A program made the position numbers and the translations under genes. From Candidatus Tayloriibacteriota bacterium (lineage in GTDB: Bacteria > Patescibacteriota > Minisyncoccia > Phycocordibacterales > PALSA-1337): a stretch of 36,831 nt of DNA. The stretch covers positions 1 to 36,831 of the forward strand of contig JANXRK010000065.1 in assembly GCA_025353045.1 (NCBI GenBank). Reading direction: 5' to 3'. A model generated the notes under the pieces. It had not been told where the DNA came from. It saw nothing but the letters and a program-made list of their open reading frames with translations, and made no database searches. Shown piece by piece: positions 3,444-30,070 of this stretch. Each line of letters begins with the position of its first letter. Position 1 is the first letter of the stretch.

Positions 3444-4376
3444 ATGTCGCACAATCTTTTAACTCTCAAGACCGAATTCCTTCAATATGTGGAAATAGAA
3501 AAAGGCCGAAGTCTAAATACTGTAAGAAATTACGATCAGTATCTCACTCGTTTTTTAAACTATACAAAGCTCAAAGATCCAAAGGCTATCACTGACAATG
3601 TTGTCCGAGACTTCCGTATTTGGCTCAATCGACAAGAAACTAAGAGTGAAAAAGGAAAAGCAAACACTACGCTCAAGAAGCGAACCCAAAACTACTACCT
3701 CATTGCTTTACGTGCTTTTCTTAAGTATCTAGCTCGACAGAACATCACTTCCCTATCTCCTGACCGTATTGAGCTGGCTAAAACACCTGAAAGATCTTTG
3801 GATCTTATAACTATTGATGAACTCGAGACTATTCTAAAAGCCCCAGACACTTCTACTCTTAGAGGACTACGAGATAAGGCGATGTTCGAGATGTTTTTCT
3901 CAACTGGCCTTCGAGTTTCTGAACTTTGTGCTCTACCGAGGGATATAAATCTAAAACTGGATGAAATGTCAGTGCGAGGAAAAGGAGAAAAGGTCAGGGT
4001 GGTATTTATTTCTGATAATGCACGAGAAGCAGTGAAAAAATGGCTAGATAAGAGAGATGATATGGACGATGCACTCTTTGTTCAAATAAAAGAAGGAGAA
4101 AAATTGGCTAAAAGCAAGGACTCTATGAGAATTAGCAGTCGTTCTGTAGAAAGAATCATCAAACAGTATGCAATTAACTCTGGAATATCAAAAAAGGTAA
4201 CACCACACGTTATTCGTCACAGTTTCGCGACAGATTTATTACGAAATGGAGCTGATCTACGCTCAGTGCAAATGCTTTTAGGACATGCAAATATTAATAC
4301 TACACAGATTTATACCCATGTGACAGATACGGAGCTAAAAAAGATACATAAGAAGTTTCATAGGAAGAGCGAATAA
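3444..4376 (+). CDS. tyrosine site-specific recombinase, XerC/XerD family
   Basis: It has an N-terminal SAM-like core-binding domain. The catalytic residues lie in GLRVSELCAL (Arg I), HVIRHSFATDLL (HxxR) and LLGHANINTTQIYTHV (His and the Tyr nucleophile). Confidence 0.85.
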   Translation: MSHNLLTLKTEFLQYVEIEKGRSLNTVRNYDQYLTRFLNYTKLKDPKAITDNVVRDFRIWLNRQETKSEKGKANTTLKKRTQNYYLIALRAFLKYLARQNITSLSPDRIELAKTPERSLDLITIDELETILKAPDTSTLRGLRDKAMFEMFFSTGLRVSELCALPRDINLKLDEMSVRGKGEKVRVVFISDNAREAVKKWLDKRDDMDDALFVQIKEGEKLAKSKDSMRISSRSVERIIKQYAINSGISKKVTPHVIRHSFATDLLRNGADLRSVQMLLGHANINTTQIYTHVTDTELKKIHKKFHRKSE

Positions 4377-4412: not shown

Positions 4413-5210
4413 ATGAAAATCCTCTGCTGGAATGTTAATGGTCTACGTGCAAATGTTAAAAAGGGCGGTTTTGAGTGGTTTTTACAGCAATCCCCTACGT
4501 TTTTCTGCCTCCAGGAGACCAAAGCCCATCCAGATCAGCTCGAAGAAGGAATTCGAAATCCTGTAGGCTATCATTCATACTTTGATCATTCTAAACTACG
4601 AAAGGGCTATAGTGGAGTAGCTATTTATGCTAAAGAGAAAGCCGATCGAGTGGATTATGGTTTTGGTAATATAAAATCAGAAGATTTAGACAAAGAGGGT
4701 CGATTCATTGCTCTTTTTTATGATAATAAGACACTTTTGGGTAAAAAATTCGTACTTATTACTACCTACTTCCCTAACGGAGGAGGCGGACCAGAGAGAT
4801 TGGATTTCAAGATGCGATTTTATGATGAATTTTTGAAATATATCAATACTCAGAGAAAAAATGGCTACGAAGTAATCTTCTGTGGAGACGTAAATACTGC
4901 GCATACAGAAATTGACCTTGCTCGACCAAAAGAAAATGAAGAGAATACAGGTTTCCTACCACAAGAGCGCGAATGGATTGATCAATTAATTTCTGCAAAC
5001 TATATTGATATTTTTAGACATTTAAATCCAAAAAAAGTTCGAGCCTATACGTATTGGGATATGAAAACATATGCAAGAGAAAGAAATGTTGGATGGAGAA
5101 TCGATTATTTTTTCATAAGCCCTGCCCTTCTCGAAAAAGTCGAAAAGACTAAGATTCACAACACTATTTTAGGATCTGATCATTGTCCGATAGAACTTGT
5201 TTTGAAATAA
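4413..5210 (+). CDS. xth: exodeoxyribonuclease III (AP endonuclease)
   Basis: CWNVNGLRA, LQETK, FCGDVNTAH, WRIDYFF and SDHCP are the EEP/ExoIII signature blocks. Confidence 0.9.
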   Translation: MKILCWNVNGLRANVKKGGFEWFLQQSPTFFCLQETKAHPDQLEEGIRNPVGYHSYFDHSKLRKGYSGVAIYAKEKADRVDYGFGNIKSEDLDKEGRFIALFYDNKTLLGKKFVLITTYFPNGGGGPERLDFKMRFYDEFLKYINTQRKNGYEVIFCGDVNTAHTEIDLARPKENEENTGFLPQEREWIDQLISANYIDIFRHLNPKKVRAYTYWDMKTYARERNVGWRIDYFFISPALLEKVEKTKIHNTILGSDHCPIELVLK

Positions 5211-5238: not shown

Positions 5239-5247
5239 TTATCCACA
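5239..5247 (+). promoter_or_regulatory. perfect DnaA-box 9-mer TTATCCACA
   Basis: It is an exact match to the consensus DnaA box. It is intergenic and lies 41 nt upstream of the extended -10 at 5286-5294. Confidence 0.4.
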
Positions 5248-10628: not shown

Positions 10629-12161
10629 TTAGCGAGCAAAGTCAATAACTCGAGTCTCTCTAATGATAGTTACTTTGATTTCCCCTGGATATTTGAGATC
10701 TTTTTCTATCTTGAGTGCTATATCCCGAGCCATATTTTTTGCTTCGAGATCAGTAATCTTCTCTGGAGTCACAAAAATACGTATCTCACGTCCTGCCTGA
10801 AGGGCATAGGACTTCTCAACTCCTTGGAATCCATTTGCAATTGCTTCTAGGTCGCCTAGACGTTTCAAATAGTTCTCAATGCTATCATGTCGAGCACCTG
10901 GACGAGCACCTGATACTGCATCTGCTGTCTGCACAATGCGTGATTCAACCGTTTCATATGGATATTCTTCATGATGAGCTTGCATTGCTTTAACAATATC
11001 CTCACTTGCACCAAATTTCTGAAGAATTCTTCGTCCGATCTCTACATGACTTCCAGAGACTTCATGATCGAGTGCCTTACCTAGGTCATGGAGCAGGGCA
11101 CCAGCCTTTGCTACAGCGACATTTGCTCCTATTTCTTCAGCAATCATTCCTGCGATGTGTGACATCTCTATAGAGTGCTGCAAGACATTTTGACCATAAC
11201 TCGTTCTAAAGTGGAGACGGCCAAGGATAAGGATAATTCGAGGATCGAGACCAATAACTCCACATTCATACGCAGCTTGCTCACCTTTTTCTTTAATTGT
11301 TTTATTTATACCAGCTTGAGCTTCAGCTACGATCTTTTCAATCTTTGCAGGCTGAATACGACCGTCTTTGATAAGTTCCTCAAGAGCAACTCGTGCTACA
11401 TGACGTCGAACAGGATCAAAAGAGGAAATAGTAATAGTTCCTGGAGTATCGTCAACGATAACTTCAACGCCTGTCATTCTTTCGAACGCTTTGATATTTC
11501 TACCTTCTTTACCGATAATCTTTCCTTTTATTTCATCACTTGGAATAGCCACAGAAGTTGACATGATGTCTGAAGCTACAGAGTTAGCTAGACGCTGAAT
11601 AGATATAGCAAGAATGTCTTGAGCCTTTTTCTCAAGAGTTTCCTCGCCATTCTGTTCAAGCTTAGAAATACGAACAAGTAAATCTTGTTCAGCATTCTTT
11701 TCAATTGTTTTGATAAGAGTTTGGCGGGCTTCTTCTGCAGACATTTTTGCAACTCGTTCCAAAGCCTGAGCTTTTTCTTGTTCAAGTTTATCGGCCTTTT
11801 CTCGGATTACTTTTATCTGATCTACCTTTTCTTTGATTTGTTCTACCTCTTTATCTATATCAGTCTGTCTTTTATCGAGTAAATCTTCCTTCTTGATTAA
11901 TCTTGTTTCTGATTGTTGAACCTTTTCTTCTTTTTCTTTTATCTCCACTCGAGCCTCTTCAAGAAACTTTTTTGATTTTGTATCTGCGTCAGCTGTGATT
12001 CTTTTCGCCTCTTCTTTTGCCGTGAGAAGCATTTCTTTTATTTCAAGCTCCATCGATCCCTTTTTCCCTAGGGATATAATGAGGCGGAGGTAGTAACCGA
12101 TTGCGACTCCGGCTACTCCTGCAATACTCAAGAGTACTGCTACGGTTTTTAATGATGTCAT
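10629..12161 (-). CDS. rny: ribonuclease Y
   Basis: It has an N-terminal TM helix, a long coiled coil, a KH domain (GKIIGKEGRNIKAFE) and an HD domain (HSIEMSHIAG, LLHDLGKA). Confidence 0.9.
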   Translation of the reverse strand: MTSLKTVAVLLSIAGVAGVAIGYYLRLIISLGKKGSMELEIKEMLLTAKEEAKRITADADTKSKKFLEEARVEIKEKEEKVQQSETRLIKKEDLLDKRQTDIDKEVEQIKEKVDQIKVIREKADKLEQEKAQALERVAKMSAEEARQTLIKTIEKNAEQDLLVRISKLEQNGEETLEKKAQDILAISIQRLANSVASDIMSTSVAIPSDEIKGKIIGKEGRNIKAFERMTGVEVIVDDTPGTITISSFDPVRRHVARVALEELIKDGRIQPAKIEKIVAEAQAGINKTIKEKGEQAAYECGVIGLDPRIILILGRLHFRTSYGQNVLQHSIEMSHIAGMIAEEIGANVAVAKAGALLHDLGKALDHEVSGSHVEIGRRILQKFGASEDIVKAMQAHHEEYPYETVESRIVQTADAVSGARPGARHDSIENYLKRLGDLEAIANGFQGVEKSYALQAGREIRIFVTPEKITDLEAKNMARDIALKIEKDLKYPGEIKVTIIRETRVIDFAR

Positions 12162-12991: not shown

Positions 12992-14002
12992 TCATCTCTC
13001 CATTCCTTTTAGTACTTCAAGGTAGAGGTCTTCCACAATGCGTTCTTGGGCTGCACCTGATTTGGCATAGTGGTCAAGTCCTGGGGCGGAGTTGATTTCG
13101 AGAATCCAATACTGGTTAGGTTTATTGCTAATATCTCCTTCAATCATGAGGTCAACACCACACAATCTCAACCCCATATCCCTGGTAAGTGCAACGCAAA
13201 CTCTCCTGAAATCTCGGTGGATCTTATCAGTCACATCCACGGAATCACCGCCATTTGACAAGTTCGCGTTATCGAGGAGATAGATCAACCTACCTTTCTC
13301 AAGTACTGACTCAAGGGTCAAACCTTGATGTTTGAGTTTTTCGATCATTCTCGAATCAGAGAAACTAATGCGTGTGTCTCGATAGTCACGAACGAATTTT
13401 ATCTGTTTTACATCGAGCAACTCACGGATAGATGATTCACCATCACCGGTGACGTTAAGTGGAATTCTCTGATAGGCAGAGATCACGCGCTTGTCTAAGA
13501 CGACTACGCGGTAGTCCTTTCCACGCACGACTTGTTGCACCAAGGCAACTCGATCACGTCCAAAGACAGACTTCATTGCATTGTAGAATTGTCGCTTGTT
13601 GTGAACCATGGCTACATTTGTTCCCTGACTTCCACTGTTAGGCTTAACAATGACTGGAAAACCAAGTCCTTTGGCGTAATGGTATGCACCGTTTACGTCT
13701 CTGTTACGCAAGCCAATCTTCGAAGCAAAAGATCTCGCAAAAAAAGTTCTGCTACCGGAAACAGTGCGGTAACCCATCTTTTTCATGAACATGTTGGCGT
13801 AGTCTTTATCCTTGGCGATCTCAGATGCTCCGAGCGGATTCAGATCAATGCAAGAACCACGAAAGTAACACCTTTTACCGTTTTTGAACGTGATTTGACC
13901 AACCACTTGCCATCTCGGTTCGATAAGCACCTTTGCTCCTATCAAGGGTGCTATTTTCTTGAGTACTTGACCGAGAATTGGTGTGACAGTTTCTTTTTTC
14001 AT
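12992..14002 (-). CDS. ATP-grasp ligase resembling the cyanophycin synthetase G-domain / RimK group
   Basis: GFPVIVKPNSGSQGTNV ... DYRVVVLD ... ANLSNGGDSVDVTDKIHRDF ... CGVDLMIEGDIS ... ILEINSAPGLDHY is the ATP-grasp motif layout as seen in the CphA ATP-grasp domain. GC is visibly elevated: line 13501-13560 has 34/60 G+C. Confidence 0.65.
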   Translation of the reverse strand: MKKETVTPILGQVLKKIAPLIGAKVLIEPRWQVVGQITFKNGKRCYFRGSCIDLNPLGASEIAKDKDYANMFMKKMGYRTVSGSRTFFARSFASKIGLRNRDVNGAYHYAKGLGFPVIVKPNSGSQGTNVAMVHNKRQFYNAMKSVFGRDRVALVQQVVRGKDYRVVVLDKRVISAYQRIPLNVTGDGESSIRELLDVKQIKFVRDYRDTRISFSDSRMIEKLKHQGLTLESVLEKGRLIYLLDNANLSNGGDSVDVTDKIHRDFRRVCVALTRDMGLRLCGVDLMIEGDISNKPNQYWILEINSAPGLDHYAKSGAAQERIVEDLYLEVLKGMER

Positions 14003-14107: not shown

Positions 14108-15391
14108 ATGAATAAAAAAAGATTTAAAAAATACTATAGGACAGTAAAGTTTCTTGAAAGTCTATCTACTTTATCTTCTAAACAAAATTATATGGTACAT
14201 AGAAATGATCTTGATATTTATTTGAAAAGAATGAGATATTTTTTAAATTTGCTTGATAATCCAGATAGATGGTTAAATTTTATTCACATAACGGGAACCT
14301 CAGGAAAGGGTACCGTTACAAACATGCTTCATGAGGTCATATATTCATCCGGAGTAAAGGTTGGTTCATTTACCTCTCCTTTTGTTACAACATCGATAGA
14401 AAAAATAAAAATTAACGATAAGTACATTTCAATGGATGACTTTGTAAAGATTGTCGAAAAAATGAAACCTGCAATTAAACAAACGATAAAAAGTAAATTT
14501 GGTGCAGTCTCATATTTTGAAGTATTCTTTGCAATATCGTTAGTCTATTTTAGACAACAGAAATGTGACTGGGTCGTTCTAGAAGTCGGTCTTGGTGGCA
14601 GATACGATGCAACTAATGTAATTGAAAATCCAGTTTTCACGGCTATTACTAATATTGATTATGATCACACTGAAATCCTGGGAAAAACACTTACCAAGAT
14701 TGCGAGAGATAAAGCAGGAATTATTAAAAAAGGTTCTACTTTTTTTACATCTGAAAATAGAAAATCAATTTTGAAGATATTTAAAAATATTTGCACAAAT
14801 CACAGCGTTGAATTTAATGCAATTCAGCACTCTCGTGATTATATGAAAAATAATATTTTATTAGTCACCAATATTTGTAAGAAAATAGGAATAAAGGATT
14901 CAGACATTCACGTTGGGATTTCAAAATCCAGACTACAATGTCGATTTGAAATTATCCAAAATGATCCAACTATTATAATAGATGGTGCACATAATAAAGC
15001 AAAAATTAAAAGCACTATCGATAATCTAAGGAAGATCAAATACAACAAATTGCATCTTGTCATAGCAATCTCGCAAAACAAAGATCATCTGGCAATCTTA
15101 AAACAATTAATACCAGTTGCTGATAATATTTATTTTACAAAATTTATGAATAGATTCAGAAAGTGTGCAGACCCTGAATCGCTCATTAATCTATCAAAGA
15201 ACTATTTTAAAAAAGATGCTATATATATGAAATATACATCATCAAAAAAAGCTACAAGTATAGCTCTTCAAAATGCAGATAAAAGTGACATTATTCTTAT
15301 AACAGGTTCGTTTTTTCTAGCCGGTGAAATTAGAAAATTGTGGTATCCAGAAGAGGAGATTCTTGAGAAACGCAATGCTTTTGATATTTAG
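14108..15391 (+). CDS. folC: Mur-ligase-family protein, folylpolyglutamate synthase-like
   Basis: It has the P-loop HITGTSGKGT, DATNVI, NIDYDHTEILG and IIIDGAHN. It is extremely AT-rich: line 14101-14160 has 12/60 G+C. Confidence 0.7.
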   Translation: MNKKRFKKYYRTVKFLESLSTLSSKQNYMVHRNDLDIYLKRMRYFLNLLDNPDRWLNFIHITGTSGKGTVTNMLHEVIYSSGVKVGSFTSPFVTTSIEKIKINDKYISMDDFVKIVEKMKPAIKQTIKSKFGAVSYFEVFFAISLVYFRQQKCDWVVLEVGLGGRYDATNVIENPVFTAITNIDYDHTEILGKTLTKIARDKAGIIKKGSTFFTSENRKSILKIFKNICTNHSVEFNAIQHSRDYMKNNILLVTNICKKIGIKDSDIHVGISKSRLQCRFEIIQNDPTIIIDGAHNKAKIKSTIDNLRKIKYNKLHLVIAISQNKDHLAILKQLIPVADNIYFTKFMNRFRKCADPESLINLSKNYFKKDAIYMKYTSSKKATSIALQNADKSDIILITGSFFLAGEIRKLWYPEEEILEKRNAFDI

Positions 15392-18748: not shown

Positions 18749-19882
18749 TTATACACCAGCTACTTGAGAATGGGTACCTGTGGATTGTATATCTATTTTC
18801 CAACCTGTGAGTTTTGCTGCAAGGCGTACATTTTGACCACCTTTTCCAATGGCAAGTGATTGTTGATCGTCAGAAACATGAACTACAGCTCGCTTTTCTT
18901 CTTTATTGAGATCAATTTTAATGATTTTTGCGGGAGAAAGTGATTCTTGAATAAATATTGAAGGATCTTCATTCCATTGAATAATATCGATCTTTTCACC
19001 AGCCAATTCACTCATAACTGTAGTAACTCGTACTCCTCTTTGACCAATGAGAGAACCAGTAGGGTCAATGTGACTGTCATTTGAATGAACAGCGATTTTT
19101 GATCGAGCTCCAGCTTCACGTGCAATAGCTTTTACCTCAACAACACCTTGTGCAATTTCTGGTGCTTCGATTTCAAATAGCTTTGAAAGAAATTTTGGAT
19201 GAGAACGAGAAAGTTTTAACATAATTCCCTTAGGAGATTCCTCGACAGCATAAAGATATGCTCGGATTTTCTCTCCTTGCTTATAGTGTTCATTTGGAAT
19301 CTGGTCTTCATATGAAATAATTCCCATCGCTCGTCCCATATCAACGAAGATTGAACCTCGTTCAACTCGCTGCACAGTTCCCATGACGATTTCGCCTTCT
19401 TTTTTACCATATTCTGCAAGAACTGAAGTTTTTTCAGCCTCACGAATCTTTTGGATAATAACTTGCTTTGCAGTTTGAGCTGCGATTCTTCCATAGTCGC
19501 CCTTTTCCTCGAGAGGGAAGACGATTTCGTCATCAACTACAGCACCTTTCTTGATTTTCTTGGCATCGGCAAGGAGAATATGATGTTCTGGGTTAAATCG
19601 AACTCGGATTTCTTCTTCGGCAATGTTCTTTAGATCCTGTTCATCCTCTTCATCACCCATGATGACTTTACTCTCATCTACAACGATTTTGACCTGATAA
19701 AACTCTACTTTTCCAGAATTATTATCAAAAATAGCCCGAACAATCTGGCCTTTTTTACCATATTCCTTTTTATAAGCAGTAGCTAGGGCAAGTTCAATAG
19801 CCTCAAGCATTTTTTCTTTTGGAATGCCTCGTTCATCTTCTAATTGTTGTAGCACTGAGTGAATTACTTTTAGGTCAAACAT
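18749..19882 (-). CDS. nusA: transcription termination/antitermination factor NusA
   Basis: It has the N-terminal domain, the S1 domain (GEIVMGTVQRVERGSIFVDMG) and two KH domains (IGQRGVRV, IGKGGQNVRLA). Confidence 0.92.
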   Translation of the reverse strand: MFDLKVIHSVLQQLEDERGIPKEKMLEAIELALATAYKKEYGKKGQIVRAIFDNNSGKVEFYQVKIVVDESKVIMGDEEDEQDLKNIAEEEIRVRFNPEHHILLADAKKIKKGAVVDDEIVFPLEEKGDYGRIAAQTAKQVIIQKIREAEKTSVLAEYGKKEGEIVMGTVQRVERGSIFVDMGRAMGIISYEDQIPNEHYKQGEKIRAYLYAVEESPKGIMLKLSRSHPKFLSKLFEIEAPEIAQGVVEVKAIAREAGARSKIAVHSNDSHIDPTGSLIGQRGVRVTTVMSELAGEKIDIIQWNEDPSIFIQESLSPAKIIKIDLNKEEKRAVVHVSDDQQSLAIGKGGQNVRLAAKLTGWKIDIQSTGTHSQVAGV

Positions 19883-19912
19883 ATTGATTTTTTGAAATTT
19901 TTATTAAAAAAT

Positions 19913-19929
19913 GTTCGCTTTCGGCGAAC
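19913..19929 (-). promoter_or_regulatory. weak terminator-like hairpin in the nusA leader
   Basis: On the minus strand, GTTCGC-cgaaa-GCGAAC is followed by ATTTTTTAATAAAAATTT. This lies about 30 nt upstream of the nusA ATG. Confidence 0.4.
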
Positions 19930-19961
19930 TTCAGACCTAGATAATATAGCATAAGAAACAA

Positions 19962-19970
19962 TTATCCACA
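19962..19970 (+). promoter_or_regulatory. perfect DnaA-box 9-mer TTATCCACA
   Basis: Exact 9-mer in the divergent nusA / 20014 intergenic region, 44 nt upstream of the ATG at 20014. Confidence 0.4.
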
Positions 19971-20013
19971 AGTTTAATAGTATTGCTCTACAAATAGTTG
20001 TATTATTGTATAT

Positions 20014-21297
20014 ATGAACATTAAAAAACTTTTTATAAAGATATCTTTTACATTATTCGTCGTAGCATTCTATTTTTTGGCGATAACTTCTCAAGTTAAA
20101 GCTGGTCCATTAAAACCTGTCGACGTCACCGGTTGGGCTTGGTCATCAAATGTCGGTTGGATTAGTTTTAATTGTATAAATACAGGTACATGCGGAACTG
20201 TATCGTATGGTGTGAAGCTTGCAACATCAACTTCAGATGCATTAGCTGGAACTCTTTCTGGTTATGCTTGGTCTTCAAATGTAGGTTGGATCGAGTTCGC
20301 TGGGGATACTTCTCTAGGTTTTCCTAGCCCTACTATTGACTTAGATAAAGGTGGGGTCTCTGGATATATTCGTGTTTGCTCTGGAACTATTCCTCCACCC
20401 AGTCCACCCACAACCACACATTGTAGTACAAATGCGTCTCGTACAGATGGCTGGGACGGATGGGCAAAGCTTTCAGAGTCACCACTGTATTCAACTAGAC
20501 AGAATGGTGGTGATAAGGGGGTTACGTACATTACGAGTGACGGATCCTTCGTTGGGTACGCTTGGGGAGGGGAAAATATCGGTTGGCTCCAGTTCAATGC
20601 AAGTTCTACATCAGGAAATGTCAAATGTCCTAGCTGTACAAATAACCCACCATCCACATTTACACCTTCATGTACTATTCCTTCAACTGTATCATACACA
20701 GCACCTGCAACATCAGGAACAGTGGCAGTAAGTGCAAGTTCTTTTGATGGATCAGCGTCATATACATTCTCAATACCAGTACTAACAAATATGCCAGTAG
20801 GACCGTATACATCACCAAGTATTCAAGTTACTGATAGTAGTAGTCCGACAAAGATAGGAAATATGGTTTGTAGTACAACGGTGGTGAATGGAAGTCCAGT
20901 CCCGCCGGGGGTTAGTATGTGGACGATGCAAAATCAAGCATCGACAGATAAAACAAAATTCTTGGTGGCAATAAAATTAGGACAAGATGCGTATGTAAAT
21001 TGGGAAGCAGTTGGAGGGATGACGTATGATGTGAATGCATGCGTTGCTCGTCTAGTGGATCCATCTAGCGCTTCATCAGTTCTATCGGGACTAAACTCTC
21101 AGCCCGTAAATGGATATTATAAGATTCCTGCATCGGCACTTACGTCAAAAGGTGATTATAAGTATAGTATGAGATGTACTGATACAAATTCAGCAGATAC
21201 AACCTTCGGACTCCCTGTCAGTGCAAAATCTACTGATCCAAATTCTCCACTGAGTTTGACAATAAAGGTAAAAGATCCTAAAGAAATAGAAAAATAA
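20014..21297 (+). CDS. secreted protein with three Trp-rich G(W/Y)AW(S/G)xN(V/I)GW(I/L)xF repeats
   Basis: It has a signal/TM segment, ISFTLFVVAFYFLAITSQVKA. The repeats are GWAWSSNVGWISF (nt 20131-20169), GYAWSSNVGWIEF (20260-20298) and GYAWGGENIGWLQF (20554-20595). The C-terminal half is Ser/Thr/Pro-rich. Confidence 0.6.
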   Translation: MNIKKLFIKISFTLFVVAFYFLAITSQVKAGPLKPVDVTGWAWSSNVGWISFNCINTGTCGTVSYGVKLATSTSDALAGTLSGYAWSSNVGWIEFAGDTSLGFPSPTIDLDKGGVSGYIRVCSGTIPPPSPPTTTHCSTNASRTDGWDGWAKLSESPLYSTRQNGGDKGVTYITSDGSFVGYAWGGENIGWLQFNASSTSGNVKCPSCTNNPPSTFTPSCTIPSTVSYTAPATSGTVAVSASSFDGSASYTFSIPVLTNMPVGPYTSPSIQVTDSSSPTKIGNMVCSTTVVNGSPVPPGVSMWTMQNQASTDKTKFLVAIKLGQDAYVNWEAVGGMTYDVNACVARLVDPSSASSVLSGLNSQPVNGYYKIPASALTSKGDYKYSMRCTDTNSADTTFGLPVSAKSTDPNSPLSLTIKVKDPKEIEK

Positions 21298-21336
21298 ACA
21301 AGAGTAAAGGGGCCCCGTGAGGAGCCCCTTTCTTGT
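21298..21336. terminator. GC-rich bidirectional hairpin terminator between convergent genes
   Basis: ACAAGA-gt-AAAGGGGC-cccgtgagga-GCCCCTT-TCTTGT is read directly. Confidence 0.7.
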
Positions 21337-21355
21337 TGGTCGCGTTGTCGCGATT

Positions 21356-22342
21356 TCATTCCACCAGCCGGAGCCGGTAGAAGAGATGTGATCGTGCCGT
21401 GGACTTGTCCGTGAAGGACTGCACTCCTGCCGGTGTGACCGGGAAGCGTCCGTTTGGAAAATCAATCCAGTTGACCAGGTCCGAAGACATCTGGTACTGG
21501 ACGAACATTCCAACCATCCCACCATGGCCCCTGAGGAGGGCTTGCGGTGATGGGGGAGGTTCCACAGAAGACTTCTTCCCATCCGCGTCCACAGGTGGAT
21601 AGAGGACGAGAGAGAGGGAGAGCGGAGGGACTTCGAGCTCCTGGCCTTGTTCGAAGGCTTGGAAAACCAGGTCACCGGTGCTGCTGCTTGAGAGGGTCCG
21701 GATTTGGATTGTGACGTCCTTATCCAAGACGAGCTCTGTTGCAATGAACACGTACGAGATGCCCGAGCGATGGATGATCTCCACAACCTTGGCGTTTTCG
21801 GTGGTCTGATTTGAGTCGGTGTTGAAGATGACGTCGTCACCCCTCGAAGCCGTCACGCCAATCCACTTGAGGTGGTTGAAGGTGTGCCCGATACGTCGGG
21901 GGAATTCCATCTTCACCCCAGACAAGTCCGGTAGAGTGTAACCAGCCGCCATTTTCACGAGGCTAAATTGCACACCCGGGACCTGAAAGTAGTTGATGAT
22001 TCCATCCTCATCGTGGTCGTCCCAGTAATACTGAAGGGCGAAGGCGACAATAGAGTAGGGCAGACTTCTGTCTTGACCTGCCACCTCTGTCGTGACCACT
22101 CTCAGTGCAGCCTTGTGAAGCTGCGACTGGAAAAACGATTCCAGCTCCGCCCGGTTGCTAACTCTGACGTTTGCAACCTCTTGGAGCAAGACTCGGTCTC
22201 CTTGCTTGAGAAAGATATCCAACTCCCTGACTTGCGCCAGCGAGTCCTTCTCCAAGCTGCCTCCCGTAGGGAAGGCCGTGATCTGCGCTTGCACCCCAAC
22301 AAAGGAGATGAGCGCAAACACGATTGCGTAGAACGCTTTCAT
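21356..22342 (-). CDS. secreted hypothetical protein encoded on a GC-rich island
   Basis: I prefer the Met at 22342, where GGAG lies 9 nt upstream. This gives the signal peptide MKAFYAIVFALISFVGVQAQ. The C-terminus is ...QMSSDLVNWIDFPNG...SHLFYRLRLVE. G+C is 36/60 in line 21361-21420 and 31/60 in 21901-21960, against 14/60 in flanking line 22441-22500. Confidence 0.6.
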   Translation of the reverse strand: MKAFYAIVFALISFVGVQAQITAFPTGGSLEKDSLAQVRELDIFLKQGDRVLLQEVANVRVSNRAELESFFQSQLHKAALRVVTTEVAGQDRSLPYSIVAFALQYYWDDHDEDGIINYFQVPGVQFSLVKMAAGYTLPDLSGVKMEFPRRIGHTFNHLKWIGVTASRGDDVIFNTDSNQTTENAKVVEIIHRSGISYVFIATELVLDKDVTIQIRTLSSSSTGDLVFQAFEQGQELEVPPLSLSLVLYPPVDADGKKSSVEPPPSPQALLRGHGGMVGMFVQYQMSSDLVNWIDFPNGRFPVTPAGVQSFTDKSTARSHLFYRLRLVE

Positions 22343-22428
22343 GATTGTAATCTCCGATGTGGCCTGTTGGCCGAGTTTACTGTTCCGAAAAATCTTCTGT
22401 AGCACGTCGAAGTGCTGTTACTGTTAGT

Positions 22429-22437
22429 ATTATACCA
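22429..22437 (-). promoter_or_regulatory. extended -10 element TGgTATAAT (minus strand) upstream of the GC-rich gene
   Basis: The + strand reads ATTATACCA. It lies in the AT-rich flank about 87 nt upstream of the ATG at 22342. Confidence 0.4.
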
Positions 22438-22471
22438 TAAAATACATATAAAAGTAAAGCAAATTAGGATC

Positions 22472-22480
22472 TGTGGATAA
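22472..22480 (-). promoter_or_regulatory. perfect DnaA-box 9-mer (TGTGGATAA on +)
   Basis: Exact 9-mer, intergenic, between the kinase stop (22495) and the promoter of the GC-rich gene. Confidence 0.4.
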
Positions 22481-22494
22481 GTACTTTAAAACAC

Positions 22495-24252
22495 TTATTT
22501 TACAAGGCTTTTTAGAAAATCAAAAGGGATGGTAATTATAACCCTTGCACCCATATTTTCTCCTTCTGAATTTATAGTCAGACTACCATGATGGGCTTCC
22601 ACGATCGATCTCGATACAGATAAGCCAATTCCCATACCGGTCGGATTTTTATTCTGAACTCTTTTGCTTCTGTAAAATGTTTTTTCAAATAAATTATTTT
22701 TTTCTTCCGTCGTAATTCCAACCCCTGTATTCTTAATTGTTATTTTAAATTGATCGTCATCAAATTCCGTCTCTATTTTTATGCTTCCTTCTGATGTATT
22801 GTAACGAATAGCATTTTCTATGATTACTAAAAGAACTTCTCGTATTTTGTTTGCATCGACTTTTATTTCCGGCCAATCAGCGATGTCTTTGAGGTAAGTG
22901 ACTGACAGATCCATGCTCGTTATGTCTATTTCTAGTTCCTTTAGGATTTTTTCTAGTGAAGGAAGCAGACTTAATTTTGATAAATTTAATATTTGCGATC
23001 CTGTTTTCATCTTAGCAATATTTTTGAAATCATCAGCAATGTCTGTTAAGTGTTGGACGGAAACCAGAGCCTCTTCTAAAGTTTTTTGTGCGTCAGTTTC
23101 AATCTTTACATATTTTCCAGAAATTATTTCATTGAGTCTATTATTTATATTCGTGATCGGCACTCTTAAATTGTGTTGAGCGATACTTATGAAAGTATCC
23201 TTTGTTTCACTCAACTTTTCGAGCTCTCTTCGGGCTTTTTTCTCTAATTCAAATGACTTGTTAATTTCTTGTGTTTGTTCAGCCACCTTGTCAGAGAGAG
23301 AAGAATTGAAAGATTTGAGAGATAGAGCAAGCGATTCGATTTTTTCGAGGTTGTCTTGTTCTTGTTTTCCGATTTGAATAAGAAGAATGCCAAGGATTAT
23401 TGAGATGATAAAAGTAATTATGGTAATAATGTGACTTGTATTTGCGTCTGTGATGGTAATGAGAGAGCCGATGAGAATCCATAGAGTAAAAACTAGGAGA
23501 TTCCGGTTGACGAGTTTGAGGTTGAAGAGATTGAATTTGATAGTGCTATAAATAAGGAAAATAAGAAATACGGGCATACCTAGTAAACCTAACTCTCCTA
23601 ATTTCCAGTCATTCGTGAAACTTCCAACCATATTGCCACAACTAAACGCAAGCAAAAATAACACTATACCTAAGGATAAAAGAACGACCTTCTTCTTATT
23701 GATTGGATTTTTACTCTCAATAAATTGCTTTGAAACGTAAAATATAATCCAACAAGTATATATAATCTCGATTATATAGCTATAATAAAGCGCAACTGGT
23801 CCCTCGACACTCATGCAAGTAATTATATTAAATCCTGACAGCGTTAACCTGCTAGGTAAAAAAACTAATATGGGGAGATATAATATTGCCAACGTTAGCT
23901 TTTGATAAAAAGAAATATCTCTTTCCTCAATTAGTACTTGAATTAAATAAAGCCCCCCAATGTAAATTAGCGGTTCAACTAATAAGGTAAATGCCCAGAC
24001 TGTCATTATGATGTCACCTCTGTCGCATGCCCAAAAAACTAGAGAAAATATTACCCATAAACTAAAAGGAATGAGAATTATGAGTAAGATCTGATTTGAT
24101 AATACTTTCCTACCTTTAATAATAATAAGTAAAGCAATTGTTATGCTGATAATAATCAGGGGTAAGTGGGAGTACAGTACTAGAGCCGGTATGTCTTTAG
24201 TTGCATTAAAATATCCGGTATTTGTCATGCTACATTGGGATAAATTTTCCAT
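22495..24252 (-). CDS. sensor histidine kinase with an N-terminal 7-TM (HisKA_7TM-like) domain
   Basis: It has about seven TM helices, a coiled coil, the H-box FISIAQHNLRVPIT and the HATPase_c blocks NAIRYN, IKNTGVGI and GMGIGLSVSRSIV. It is colinear with the kinase at 26443..28104. Confidence 0.85.
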   Translation of the reverse strand: MENLSQCSMTNTGYFNATKDIPALVLYSHLPLIIISITIALLIIIKGRKVLSNQILLIILIPFSLWVIFSLVFWACDRGDIIMTVWAFTLLVEPLIYIGGLYLIQVLIEERDISFYQKLTLAILYLPILVFLPSRLTLSGFNIITCMSVEGPVALYYSYIIEIIYTCWIIFYVSKQFIESKNPINKKKVVLLSLGIVLFLLAFSCGNMVGSFTNDWKLGELGLLGMPVFLIFLIYSTIKFNLFNLKLVNRNLLVFTLWILIGSLITITDANTSHIITIITFIISIILGILLIQIGKQEQDNLEKIESLALSLKSFNSSLSDKVAEQTQEINKSFELEKKARRELEKLSETKDTFISIAQHNLRVPITNINNRLNEIISGKYVKIETDAQKTLEEALVSVQHLTDIADDFKNIAKMKTGSQILNLSKLSLLPSLEKILKELEIDITSMDLSVTYLKDIADWPEIKVDANKIREVLLVIIENAIRYNTSEGSIKIETEFDDDQFKITIKNTGVGITTEEKNNLFEKTFYRSKRVQNKNPTGMGIGLSVSRSIVEAHHGSLTINSEGENMGARVIITIPFDFLKSLVK

Positions 24253-28133: not shown

Positions 28134-29012
28134 ATGAGAGTAAAAATCTTAAAGAGAATAAATTGTATAAGATTGAAGGGTTCAGGGTTTTTTGAAAAAG
28201 ATGAGGTTCAGTATAGTGATAAAATTTCTGAAGTCTGGAACGAACCAATACAAATTAGTATTGATATAATTAGGCAATTAATCAAAAAACAGTTAGTTTC
28301 AGTTTATTTGAGGGGATCAGTTGAAAATAATACGCAAATTAGTCACATTTCTGATATTGACTTAGTTATTATATTTTCTAAAAGCATTTCTTTGGTGGTG
28401 AGGAATAAGTTACAAAGGCGGCTAGATGTTGTGAGGAAAGATTATCCTTTCGTCAGCAAAGTTGACCTCATGTATATTAATATTTTGGATATTAAATCAA
28501 CTTCCAAAAGAGTTCTTGTAAAGCTAACATCAAGATGTGTTTTTGGGTCGTCAGTTGAGAGGTTGATACCAAATTTACAAGCAGGTAATGACATTGCAGT
28601 TACCCTTAATACGCTTAAGGCGGATCTGCACAGTTTTCTTGGTAGTAATAAATATTCTTCAAAAGAAAAATGCACCTGGATGATGAAAAAGATATTAAGG
28701 TCAGGGGCTGAACTTGTCTCCGAACGATCAGGATTATATATTAGAGACTTGTACTGCTGTTATAAAGTTTTTATTAAGTTTTACCCTAAATATAGAAAAG
28801 AAATGTATGAATGTTTAAAGTTAGCCATCGCACCATGTGGAAAAACAAAAAAAGTTAGAGAACTTGTTGTACACACCACTTCCTTTTTGATGAATGAGTC
28901 TGTGAGACTTAATATAATAAACAACAACCCCAGAGCGGGGTTGTCTCGAGTGACTGGTCACAAGGTCGCCTCTGCTAGTAACCGTTCGGTTGTAACGAGG
29001 GGAGTGCTTTGA
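28134..29012 (+). CDS. Pol-beta-superfamily nucleotidyltransferase, ANT/AadA-like architecture
   Basis: The NTase motif is VYLRGSVENNTQISHISDIDLVIIF, with the third carboxylate in SKVDLMYI, followed by a helical C-terminal domain. The last ~27 aa (PRAGLSRVTGHKVASASNRSVVTRGVL) are encoded antisense to the neighbouring GC-rich gene. Confidence 0.6.
   Translation: MRVKILKRINCIRLKGSGFFEKDEVQYSDKISEVWNEPIQISIDIIRQLIKKQLVSVYLRGSVENNTQISHISDIDLVIIFSKSISLVVRNKLQRRLDVVRKDYPFVSKVDLMYINILDIKSTSKRVLVKLTSRCVFGSSVERLIPNLQAGNDIAVTLNTLKADLHSFLGSNKYSSKEKCTWMMKKILRSGAELVSERSGLYIRDLYCCYKVFIKFYPKYRKEMYECLKLAIAPCGKTKKVRELVVHTTSFLMNESVRLNIINNNPRAGLSRVTGHKVASASNRSVVTRGVL
28924..28944 (-). terminator. hairpin terminator of the GluRS-like gene, lying inside the 3' coding end of the NTase gene
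   Basis: The + strand reads AACAACCCC-agagc-GGGGTTGT. On the minus strand it is followed by TGTTTATTATATT. Confidence 0.5.
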
Positions 29013-30070
29013 CGAATCTTTTTGTAGACTTTGGAAATGGCATCTCGCTCAAGCATGTTCGATGCTGTGGCGAAAGAGACGCGTTCAGGTTTTTCAGAGG
29101 TGTTTTGTTGGTATCTTATCCTTGTATTTTTTGCGACTACCACATCACCTTCACAAAACACACTTTCAAGGCGGGTCTGCTGGTTACTCATGAGTAACGC
29201 AACTCCCCAATCTTTTACTGATACACCATGTTTATCTTCCAGGAAGGGTGTTCTTGGTAATTTCATCACTGGATTTTGGAATTTTATCCCAGGATGAATG
29301 AAAAGATGGACTTTCACATGCGGAAATAGAGTGGAGCTTATAGCAATAGCTCGACAGACTTGGGTTAAGGTCGTAAAGCCAACGACCAACCCCACCTCAT
29401 TGATTTTAAATTTATGTGCCAGAAAGTAGGGGAATATTCCTAGTGCACAATCAGGATCAAGAACTAAACCATCTAACAAAAGATCGCCTTGTTCTGGATT
29501 CCTGAGTTTCGTTATAATGAGCTGGTGCCTAGTAATCTCCCCATAGACTGTTGAGAATCTTCGTGCCTGAACTGATGGCGTGCAAAAAATATCTAGTTTA
29601 CCTAAAGCTGTAATCGCTCGTACTTCACTTTCTGCCGTCTCAATCATTCCGTGGCATCTTGTACAGACTTTGTCGGTGAAGTTATGACCTCTTCTTTGTA
29701 CCCCAATTACATTCAGCGCGCTCGTTGGAAGTTCTACAACCCCACACGTACAGCGTGAAAGGTTAATCGTCGCTCGCTGGGTTTTTCCTAACAGTGATTG
29801 CGTGACAAAATTTTGGAAATCACTATCAAGATCGGTTGCTATATCACACTCCTCAGTCGTGACACCAACCGCAGTCAAATCATGCCCGAAGTAGTTGACG
29901 ATTCTTTCGGGGTTGTTGGGTAGGGTGTTGCGTTGAAGTCCAAGAAGGTTAATTGGTAGAATAAGTCTTGATCCAGTAAGTCTTGCGAGTGTTTTGGCAG
30001 TGAGAATGGTTGAGAAGACTTTAAGACTTCTACCATGCCGATAACTTATCGGTAAAGTGGTAATGATCAT
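28958..30070 (-). CDS. diverged class Ib aminoacyl-tRNA-synthetase catalytic-core paralog (GluRS/GluQ-RS-like), without an anticodon-binding domain
   Basis: It is colinear by eye with GluRS/YadB as I remember them. The beta-loop-helix start is MIITTLPISYRHGRSL (HIGH region degenerate). LQRNTLPNNPERIV compares with LERSTPEAIEAI. FQNFVTQSLLGK..RCTCG ... CTRCHG compares with the CxC...C(R)H zinc knuckle. VGFTTLTQVCRAIAI compares with RGxDxxxxTxRQI. PVMKLPRT compares with KLSKR. G+C is elevated: 31/60 in line 29701-29760. Confidence 0.45.
   Translation of the reverse strand: MIITTLPISYRHGRSLKVFSTILTAKTLARLTGSRLILPINLLGLQRNTLPNNPERIVNYFGHDLTAVGVTTEECDIATDLDSDFQNFVTQSLLGKTQRATINLSRCTCGVVELPTSALNVIGVQRRGHNFTDKVCTRCHGMIETAESEVRAITALGKLDIFCTPSVQARRFSTVYGEITRHQLIITKLRNPEQGDLLLDGLVLDPDCALGIFPYFLAHKFKINEVGLVVGFTTLTQVCRAIAISSTLFPHVKVHLFIHPGIKFQNPVMKLPRTPFLEDKHGVSVKDWGVALLMSNQQTRLESVFCEGDVVVAKNTRIRYQQNTSEKPERVSFATASNMLERDAISKVYKKIRQSTPLVTTERLLAEATL

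Follow-up and report, generated by a model that had tools for sequence, protein, structure and literature searches.

The 36,831-nt window analysed here (contig JANXRK010000065.1 of the assembly GCA_025353045.1, Candidatus Tayloriibacteriota) contains a GC-rich patch of about 1.1 kb, which raises the question of whether this DNA was imported or is native to its lineage. GC islands are routinely read as horizontal transfer, Patescibacteria surveys included, and a first-pass annotation made from the letters of the sequence had described this one as carrying a domesticated gene of foreign appearance. The patch is real, yet it is no recent import: it holds a long-resident gene of Taylorbacteria-like Patescibacteria with a putatively secreted, surface-type product, and a textbook-looking island is here a resident gene.

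The compositional step itself is confirmed. Positions 21298-22420 have a GC content of 0.52-0.60 in 200-nt windows (from 21300 to 22400), against 0.26-0.44 in the left flank and 0.31-0.38 in the right one, about +5 sd from the genome-wide 600-nt windows (mean GC 0.376, sd 0.038); the island gene reaches 0.55, against 0.377 for the genome. The AT skew is near 0 in the island, with no sense-strand adenine depletion, and the edges correspond to a promoter at one end and a shared terminator at the other. The source genome, a MAG, is fragmented into 73 contigs, and high-GC DNA could have been chimerically joined into a low-GC contig during assembly or binning. However, the Logan assemblies of SRR20627849 and SRR23617308 are 100% identical to positions 19804-22784 and 20698-22784, respectively; as they derive from separate runs and are identical across both junctions, the junctions were assembled independently. 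The genomes of other species moreover show the same gene arrangement. The chimeric join against which the first-pass annotation had warned is thus not seen at the assembly level, both boundaries being spanned twice, and an artefact is extremely improbable.

The locus comprises the following features (positions in the window):

20014..21297, plus strand: convergent partner, a 427-aa secreted protein with GWxWSSNxGWIxF repeats and AT-rich codons (GC3 0.26)
21190..21840, minus strand: shadow ORF, no gene, in another frame over the real CDS (GC2 0.65, no homologues)
21306..21331, both strands: shared bidirectional intrinsic terminator with an 11-bp stem, including 7 GC pairs
21356..22342, minus strand: CDS of the 328-aa putatively secreted protein P0001, with an ATG after GGAG and the stop TGA at 21356-21358 (GC 0.55)
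21359..21547, minus strand: C-terminal five-stranded beta-sandwich module of P0001, aa 266-328 (GG.vG...Q.SsDL..W...FYRLR; AF2 and family alignment)
21593..21901, minus strand: central beta-sandwich, aa 148-250 (AF2 model)
21923..22270, minus strand: N-terminal alpha/beta domain, aa 25-140 (domain model, pLDDT 92)
21968..22402, plus strand: shadow ORF, no gene, overlapping the P0001 CDS and unsupported
22043..22342, minus strand: first 300 nt of the CDS, the most over-folded part of the mRNA (synonymous-shuffle z)
22283..22342, minus strand: putative signal peptide, aa 1-20 (MKAFYAIVFALISFVGVQAQ; by inspection)
22343..22424, minus strand: GC-rich 5' leader of about 80 nt with two predicted hairpins and the SD GGAG at 22352-22355
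22429..22458, minus strand: predicted sigma-70-type promoter TTTACT-18-TATAAT, TG-extended (10/12 matches)
22472..22480, minus strand: TTATCCACA, matching the consensus DnaA box exactly and lying some 10 nt upstream of the -35 region
22495..24252, minus strand: upstream multi-pass sensor histidine kinase (HisKA and HATPase_c), conserved left neighbour

Taken together, these parts suggest that the island would be a single self-contained transcription unit made of box and promoter, a leader of about 80 nt, the 328-aa CDS and the shared terminator, with transcription probably starting just downstream of the predicted promoter. The P0001 CDS has GC1, GC2 and GC3 values of 0.59, 0.38 and 0.68, against a genome median GC3 of 0.29 and 0.24-0.32 in its window neighbours; codon-position GC and the lack of homologues for the shadow frames agree with the earlier view of one intact ORF accompanied by shadow ORFs. 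The host-type promoter, SD and DnaA-type box that had been placed at the AT-rich boundary were found there (TTTACT-18-TATAAT, GGAG and an exact TTATCCACA). At the same position the orthologous promoters of genomes G005 and G036 harbor TTATCCACA or TTATACACA, and a ttgctttactttta...TATAAT block is kept in three species. TTATCCACA is present in 16 copies genome-wide, against 4 for the reversed control, many of them just upstream of promoters, and the convergent gene has its own upstream copy at 19962-19970. The sharing of a terminator with this secreted neighbour (hairpin 21306-21331) also holds, and G005 and G036 have a terminator hairpin at the equivalent position. The leaders of the orthologues are similar in length and have different hairpins. 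Rfam covariance models identified only tRNAs in the window at gathering score, and nothing in the island at E up to 0.1.

P0001 is a probably exported protein that is predicted to have three domains, an N-terminal alpha/beta domain with no known fold relative followed by two beta-sandwiches. By eye, its N-terminus (MKAFYAIVFALISFVGVQA|Q) has a lysine, K2, ahead of a hydrophobic core, with a cleavage motif of the VQA type, which looks like the Sec-type signal peptide proposed earlier, and the family alignment reveals a similar type of N-terminus in 14 of 16 members. Searches of Pfam, NCBIfam and PDB sequences assigned P0001 to no family; a Pfam DUF5730 match was rejected (13.3 bits, gathering cut-off 25). 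The N-terminal domain, although confidently modelled, has no significant fold match in the PDB (best E 0.06, TM 0.3); the family is an uncharacterised, putatively secreted one with a domain matching no solved structure. For the central sandwich and the whole model, Foldseek against PDB and BFVD gave just generic Ig-like, adhesin-extender and tail-protein matches. The best whole-model matches are tandem Ig-like adhesin extenders (PDB 6xi3, 4p99), likewise strings of beta-sandwiches in an exported protein; however, the match is weak (E 5e-4, TM 0.15), P0001 has no repeats, Ca-binding motifs or anchor, and its N-terminal domain is left unmatched.

The AF2 model of the whole protein (pLDDT 84) places five strands over residues 267-327, and residues 274-325 match four tandem copies in P0013, a 718-aa DUF11-repeat protein, with 43% identity, so that the C-terminal beta-sandwich suggested in the first-pass annotation is now supported by both model and repeats. 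P0001 thus shares with large secreted proteins such as P0013 a module of about 55 aa (SSDL..W....FYRL; 43% identity over 52 aa, predicted C-terminal five-stranded sandwich), but harbors a single copy, placed after two unrelated domains. This module has no Pfam or NCBIfam model, and with respect to C-terminal sorting signals (PEP-CTERM, T9SS CTD, LPXTG), the last 74 aa have no NCBIfam match (E up to 1) and none in Pfam. A match of P0004 (1364 aa; eight stretches against residues 39-82) proved spurious, driven by repeats. The most likely place of action of P0001 is the cell surface, where the convergent GW-repeat protein, also secreted, would be its partner. Because its gene lies beside this surface protein and a sensor kinase, and in relatives beside a type IV pilus operon, P0001 is a candidate host-contact protein of an episymbiotic lineage.

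The homologue search had been set beforehand as the test of a foreign origin. Searches by word index and by full HMMER, covering 5.8 and 1.84 billion proteins, identified only about 16 full-length relatives (294-336 aa), all from the same genus or order of this low-GC lineage, which largely refutes the import proposed in the first-pass annotation. At genome level, the family was detected by profile in 15 of the genus's 45 genomes and in 9 of 401 at the level of the order; a word search with the profile gave just 4 proteins, and metagenome contigs searched with alignment A4 yielded no relatives. All loci that were read have a Patescibacteria-type context, and the NusA relatives are labelled Taylorbacteria or Paceibacteria. 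In these searches the gene family is restricted to Taylorbacteria-like Paceibacteria (Patescibacteria). Four further families of the order contain weak partial matches, every one of them GC-enriched; no relatives of the N-terminal and central domains were found elsewhere. Of 80 related NusA loci just 2 carry the gene, a patchy distribution; it has also been gained and lost, or transferred between members of the lineage.

Gene order supports long residence. The sensor kinase adjoins the family gene in G000, G005, G036, G068 and G012, and the order kinase, family gene, convergent GW protein is found in the first four of these (at least four species); five more loci have the kinase or the GW protein beside the family gene, and homologues of the GW protein are convergent to it in at least eight other loci. 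Orthologues occupy the same slot in G005, G036 and G068, while many other relatives do not have the gene. This slot, upstream of NusA, varies among related species, which have there a pilus operon, GW proteins or different GC-rich secreted genes; the GC-rich gene in the slot of loci L052 and L053 is unrelated and no family member. No integrase, transposase, tRNA or flanking repeat was found at the boundaries, where short repeats are at chance level, and the nearest tRNAs lie 11 kb from the island.

Four-fold sites between G000 and G036 or G068 are at the saturation expectation, and the P0001 orthologue is only about 51-52% identical while NusA is 95% identical; across the family, sequences have diverged to about 25% identity. 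The gene has been resident at this slot since before the compared species diverged, and the protein evolves fast. Of the 18 family members, 17 nonetheless have a GC3 of 0.38-0.70; the genes next to them have 0.14-0.35. Given long residence and a GC3 that stays raised despite saturation, the GC-richness is no leftover of import. The raw pS of the family gene is not below that of its neighbours; because sites are saturated, synonymous constraint is undetectable by this measure.

What accompanies this composition is an excess of RNA folding. The mRNA was compared with synonymous-codon, block-local and dinucleotide shuffles, sense with antisense, and an AT-rich family member served as internal control. 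The window gene has z-scores of -5.3 (full MFE) and -7.6 (pair span 100) against synonymous shuffles, compared with -1.4 to -2.1 on the antisense strand; dinucleotide shuffles gave -4.96 (sense) and -2.93 (antisense), with -0.37 for a neighbouring gene. Among the 14 full-length members, the 13 GC-rich ones tested have sense z-scores of -3.3 to -9.9 against synonymous shuffles (mean -5.4) and a mean of -5.0 against block-local ones, while the single AT-rich member reaches -1.1; in 13 of 14 members the sense strand is more negative than the antisense. Control means are 0.03 for seven neighbour genes in other genomes, -0.36 for 16 typical genes of the source genome and -1.0 for ten E. coli genes of similar GC3, one of which reaches -5.6. 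This sense-strand over-folding of GC-rich family members, which ties composition to RNA folding, is newly found here.

The excess peaks at the 5' end. Successive 150-nt windows of the window gene give z-scores of -4.5, -2.1 and -2.7 against synonymous shuffles, and family-wide the first window has a mean of -3.3, or -2.4 with within-window shuffles; the initiation region is just slightly more open than the gene body. No positionally conserved RNA structure was found across the family, except for a hairpin over the FYRLRLV codons in 4-5 members, which may follow from the conserved peptide. Since the position of structure is not conserved, the selected property would be general foldedness, which is harder to prove. 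Other GC-rich genes of the source genome show a moderate excess (mean z -2.7), and some are DGR targets or guanylate kinase; one cause therefore does not cover all islands. The moderately GC-raised window genes 12992..14002 and 28958..30070 show no strong folding excess.

For this resident, lineage-restricted gene family we consider it probable that the GC-richness is kept up alongside selection for an extensively structured mRNA. GC-richness would then be a maintained property, paired with an mRNA selected for extensive base-pairing, chiefly across its leader and the initial 150-300 nt of coding sequence, and folding of this message in the cell, as predicted, could set the mRNA lifetime and/or the translation rate of the surface protein. 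A broader proposal is considerably more tentative, namely that GC-rich synonymous sites of surface and accessory genes of Paceibacteria are selected for hyper-structured mRNAs, especially in the leader and signal-peptide-coding start, base composition acting as a gene-specific post-transcriptional code. If true, this code could serve very long-lived or conditionally translated messages of host-contact proteins, for example, and the foreign-looking GC islands of Paceibacteria genomes would be regulatory signatures instead of imports. If general, it would mean that island-based transfer estimates in these genomes are inflated, and that an expression-control layer has gone unrecognised in organisms with very few regulators.

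A recent import from a high-GC (PVC-type) donor, with a host promoter fitted later, would account for the sharp step at both ends, and would be consistent with the similarity of the C-terminal module to the repeats of P0013, rich in Ala, Gly, Pro and Arg, and with the unrelated GC-rich PEP-CTERM gene that two related MAGs hold in the same slot, PEP-CTERM being typical of diderm phyla. This reading is nevertheless largely refuted: none of three large searches gave a full-length homologue outside the low-GC lineage, the synteny is shared by at least four species with saturated synonymous sites, raised GC3 is retained in nearly all members, integrase, tRNA and flanking repeat are all absent, and the excess folding would be left unexplained. 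We regard it as very unlikely. A foreign origin further back, in the ancestor of the order, is somewhat less improbable, although still unlikely; it would concern either the whole family or its C-terminal module, and selection would later have kept the GC-richness. The presence of the module in proteins outside the family and the GC-enriched partial matches in four other families of the order speak for it, but no donor clade can be named, and neither the N-terminal nor the central domain has relatives elsewhere. Such an origin is compatible with the maintained-structure reading of the present state.

It has a comparably low probability that GC was raised by biased gene conversion, or by alleles being replaced repeatedly, at a variable slot prone to recombination, with the folding excess as a side effect or unrelated. 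This reading would fit the variable slot upstream of NusA, the patchy family and the contrast between a protein 52% identical and NusA at 95%, and the conserved promoter and terminator could act as homology arms. On the other hand, conversion predicts neither sense-specific excess base-pairing nor a 5' peak, and the AT-rich neighbours (the GW protein and a 248-aa protein), which evolve equally fast, are not GC-enriched. To our knowledge, a GC3 shift from 0.29 to 0.68 is far above reported bacterial conversion-bias effects. Mutagenic retrohoming could likewise lie behind fast evolution and odd composition if the gene were a DGR target: the genome has a reverse transcriptase on contig C56 and a VR/TR pair with A-specific mismatches on C23, and at least one other of its GC-rich islands is a target. 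However, the island matches itself alone in the genome (9% unassembled), 22 family loci have no TR-like repeat (the C23 pair being the positive control), adenine is not depleted and AT skew is near 0, and the DGR targets of the source genome have weak folding excess. With no second copy or template repeat, this mechanism was rejected for the P0001 gene, and we give it almost no weight.

With atypical islets attributed to HGT, the locus shares the abrupt change in GC, the lone accessory gene and the patchy occurrence; it differs by homologues found in the same lineage only, synteny across species with saturated synonymous sites, GC-richness that persists with no amelioration, and the absence of mobility signatures. 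Katz and Burge reportedly described in 2003 that bacterial coding regions are under selection for local RNA structure. In E. coli, ORF-wide mRNA secondary-structure units set translation efficiency (Burkhardt et al. 2017, PMC5318159). As expected of such units, the native P0001 fold is more stable on the sense strand than both synonymous and dinucleotide shuffles, and the property concerns the whole ORF, is gene-specific and is encoded via synonymous sites. The P0001 family is distinguished by z-scores of -5 to -10, by a GC3 raised by 25-40 points in an AT-rich genome and by a 5' peak, and the predicted effect is conserved as a property across the diverged family. Firmicute mRNAs such as the aprE and ermC leaders carry 5' stabiliser stem-loops. 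P0001 resembles them in having a long leader with a predicted hairpin close to its putative 5' end, and an RNase Y gene is present at 10629..12161; unlike these stabilisers, the P0001 leader keeps its length and hairpin content between orthologues, and not its sequence.

The GC-rich stretch at about 21298-22420, which the first-pass annotation had described as an island in AT-rich surroundings, has 52-60% GC over 21300-22400 in 200-nt windows, against 26-44% in the left and 31-38% in the right flank, and is an extreme outlier with respect to the genome background (mean 37.6%, sd 3.8, in 600-nt windows over 605 kb), in agreement with that description. As also proposed, it harbors a single real ORF, at 21356..22342 on the minus strand and coding for a 328-aa protein (P0001); 21190..21840 and 21968..22402, being its shadow frames, were rejected as genes. 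The compositional signal resides in the third codon positions, the GC3 of this gene being 0.68, against 0.24-0.32 for its neighbours and a median of 0.29 (sd 0.08) over the genome. The previously noted promoter-like motif and the terminator in common with a convergent secreted-protein gene were both recovered:

22453-22458, minus strand: promoter -35 hexamer TTTACT, paired with the TATAAT at 22429-22434
22429-22434, minus strand: TG-extended promoter -10 TATAAT, predicted, just upstream of the GC-rich block
21306-21331: GC-rich terminator hairpin of 11 bp, common to the convergent gene 20014..21297, at the downstream edge of the block

Since the upstream edge lies a few bases from the predicted transcription start and the downstream edge at this hairpin, the island corresponds to exactly one transcription unit, including its untranslated ends. 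A chimeric join was rejected, because positions 19804-22784 and 20698-22784 of the window are each matched at 100% identity by one Logan assembly, the two coming from different runs and both spanning both island junctions.

The proposal that the gene was imported from a foreign source was not borne out, full-length homologues being found only in its own low-GC lineage and, in four genomes, in the same slot. One homologue (P0002, 49-51% identity to P0001) was retrieved from 5.8 billion proteins by word-indexed search, and HMMER, run in full on 1.84 billion representatives, gave 18 matches, 16 of them full-length relatives of 294-336 aa. By whole-genome profile search, the family is present in 15 of the 45 genomes of the genus and in 9 of 401 drawn genomes of the order, the sister genus contributing one clear match and four other families partial, weak ones. 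The NusA relatives of the window's genome (G000) carry the names Candidatus Taylorbacteria, Paceibacteria or Patescibacteria, and all family loci read have a gene context of these types. The order sensor kinase (22495..24252 in the window), family gene and convergent GW-repeat secreted protein is the same in G000, G005, G036 and G068, with NusA coming next in G000 and G005, and five more loci retain the kinase or the GW protein beside the family gene. Three species keep the promoter block, in which a box reading TTATCCACA or TTATACACA precedes the -35 by about 10 nt, and also the terminator position and the length and hairpins, but not the sequence, of a leader of about 85 nt.

GC3 is 0.38-0.70 in 17 of 18 family members and 0.14-0.35 in flanking genes. 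At conserved residues, the third bases of four-fold codons agree between G000 and G036 or G068 no more often than composition predicts (observed 0.21-0.43, expected 0.24-0.35, for the kinase, GW and family genes alike), indicating that synonymous sites have fully turned over while the gene kept its slot and its GC-richness. GC3 was thus held high through synonymous-site saturation, which neutral amelioration of an import cannot explain and which requires a gene-specific force. The protein itself is only 52% identical between G000 and G005, against 95% for NusA and RNase Y, and its pN is 0.32 versus 0.03 for NusA. Two neighbouring genes of similar evolutionary speed are AT-rich, so that speed alone does not bring GC-richness.

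The message of the island gene is over-folded. When synonymous codons were permuted within the gene, preserving protein, codon usage and GC3, the native sense strand had a folding energy of -391 kcal/mol versus -346 for the shuffles (sd 8.5; z -5.3), and z was near 0 for NusA, the GW gene and the kinase. With pair span capped at 100 nt, z was -7.6 for the sense and -2.1 for the antisense strand; with dinucleotide-preserving shuffles, the values were -4.96 and -2.93, with -0.37 for a neighbour gene. Among the 14 full-length members compared, 13 GC-rich and one AT-rich, which are kin and hence non-independent although their synonymous sites are randomised, the GC-rich ones gave z of -3.3 to -9.9 (mean -5.4; mean -5.0 with shuffling confined to 60-codon blocks), the sense strand was more over-folded than the antisense in 13 of 14, and the sole AT-rich member, that of G018 with host-like codons (GC3 0.25), showed no over-folding (z -1.1). 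Controls gave mean z of 0.03 (seven genes next to family members outside G000), -0.36 (16 typical G000 genes) and -1.0 (10 E. coli genes of GC3 0.45-0.58, with one outlier at -5.6). This outlier is the fimbrial chaperone gene ycbF of strain K-12 (L049:3948-4658). The excess is greatest in the first 150 nt of the coding sequence, where z is -4.5 to -5.2 for the window gene and -3.3 on average for the family (-2.4 with codon shuffling inside that stretch only), and where GC3 is maximal in all 13 GC-rich members. Apart from one hairpin over the FYRLRLV codons, no predicted pairs are positionally conserved beyond close relatives. Excess base-pairing of the sense strand, concentrated at the 5' end, is therefore family-wide as a property, and what is conserved is foldedness, not a single fold.

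Recent import of the gene is contradicted by its lineage-restricted, syntenic relatives, by the persistence of GC through synonymous saturation and by the over-folded mRNA. GC-biased conversion at a variable slot would match the patchiness of the family, carried by 2 of 80 NusA loci, and the varying slot content, but it predicts neither strand-specific folding nor a 5' peak, and we consider it unlikely. The C-terminal module may have come from a foreign source in ancient times, which would be compatible with what is seen today. Finally, a diversity-generating retroelement (DGR) was rejected as the cause of the island, because G000 holds no second copy of it and the family loci hold no template-like repeat.

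P0001 is a probably exported three-domain protein whose gene is resident, lineage-restricted and self-contained. Sequence searches of Pfam, NCBIfam and PDB matched no family. An AlphaFold model built on a 16-sequence family alignment (pLDDT 84) predicts:

N-terminus: signal-peptide helix
aa 25-140: alpha/beta domain
aa 148-250: beta-sandwich
between the two sandwiches: proline-rich linker
aa 266-328: five-stranded C-terminal sandwich

For the whole model, a fold search found nothing beyond generic matches of the Ig-like, adhesin-extender and phage-tail types, and the N-terminal domain modelled by itself (pLDDT 92) had no significant match in PDB (best E 0.06, TM 0.3). The C-terminal module (GG.vG...Q.SsDL..W....FYRLR) has four tandem matches, at 43% identity over 52 aa, in P0013, a 718-aa protein with DUF11 repeats, so that the module type named in the first-pass annotation was right at the domain level.

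As hypotheses on the purpose of the folding and the function of P0001, we propose that GC-rich codons are maintained for building a heavily paired mRNA, that such pairing would set message lifetime and/or translation in an organism having RNase Y (10629..12161), and that P0001 may work at the surface together with the GW-repeat protein. The two genes have a terminator in common and a TTATCCACA box before each promoter, also in G005. The family gene of G014 adjoins a pilus ATPase gene, and many relatives have a type IV pilus operon in the slot upstream of NusA, a context compatible with a cell-surface role but no proof of it.

Coding regions are known to be under weak selection for local structure; as far as we can tell, a gene-specific GC3 shift of 25-40 points linked with extreme folding within an AT-rich genome has not been described. 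In E. coli, ORF-wide mRNA structure tracks translation efficiency (PMC5318159). A survey of horizontal transfer in Patescibacteria used IslandViewer-type island calls and notes that the compositional signal fades with time (PMC12455944); methods of this kind would miscall loci like the P0001 island.

The 4 kb upstream of NusA (L050-L064) represent a variable slot in the group, directly occupied in many species by the pilus operon (ATPase, platform protein, pilins) and in others by a GW-repeat secreted protein or a pair of these, which may or may not be accompanied by a GC-rich partner gene. In two related Patescibacteria MAGs, an unrelated GC-enriched secreted protein lies in the equivalent slot (L052:1974-2663, L053:1914-2657), between the pilus ATPase gene and a GW-repeat protein. 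At its C-terminus is a PEP-CTERM sorting signal (TIGR02595, 21 bits, cut-off 16), which is unexpected as, to our knowledge, Patescibacteria are not known for exosortase systems. The GW protein of the window (20014-21297, 427 aa) has no Pfam or NCBIfam match and carries three GW(A/G)WSSN(V/I)GWI(S/E/Q)F copies near its N-terminus; in many genomes, its homologues and the family gene are in convergent arrangement. The perfect DnaA box reported by the island promoter is present (TTATCCACA at 22472), with further TTATCCACA sites at 5239, 8051, 19962 and 25640 and TTATTCACA sites at 14280 and 26520. The consensus thus occurs 7 times in the window versus 2 expected (0 of 100 shuffles reach 7) and 16 times genome-wide versus 4 for the reversed control. 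Many of these boxes, which are kept in G005, precede promoter hexamers by 10-40 nt, among them those of both convergent secreted-protein genes. They may represent a site for a transcription factor and not an origin.

About 14 of 540 G000 ORFs have a GC3 of at least 0.55; as a group these are moderately over-folded (mean z -2.7), and the other islands are a mixed set of differing natures. The GC-rich gene on contig C29 codes for a guanylate kinase. That of C23 (3299-4030) is a textbook DGR target, its variable repeat (3926-4025) being 86% identical to a template repeat (4419-4518), with A as template base at 14 of 15 core mismatches. C23:3299-4530 and C56:1-1599 together form a complete DGR, the latter with:

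C56:236-652, minus strand: Avd-like four-helix ORF
C56:526-1599: reverse transcriptase of 358 aa (PF00078, E 2e-31)

C58 looks like a second target. C58:487-960 has the C-terminal motif of the C23 target and an Avd-like ORF of its own. A 140-bp sequence is 100% identical at five contig ends (C3:1-141, C58:1-141, C70:3-141, C52:1-100, C31:3470-3586), beyond which the contigs part and continue with different GC-rich genes. Possibly it includes the 5' end of a gene on the minus strand; frame translations of it gave no clean open frame. The sequence represents either an element present in several copies or a single hypervariable locus of which the population carries several alleles. Three GC-rich genes have a 5' leader in common (C23, L031:480-545; C47, L032, minus strand, about 930-1000; C58, L035:190-260), which had no match in an Rfam search. 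It forms a long imperfect hairpin, TTCGC(C/T)A(T/C)AGCAGAAAA(C/T)GGCT..loop..TTCTCCGCTGTGGCGAA, and the differences between the C23 and C47 leaders preserve pairing.
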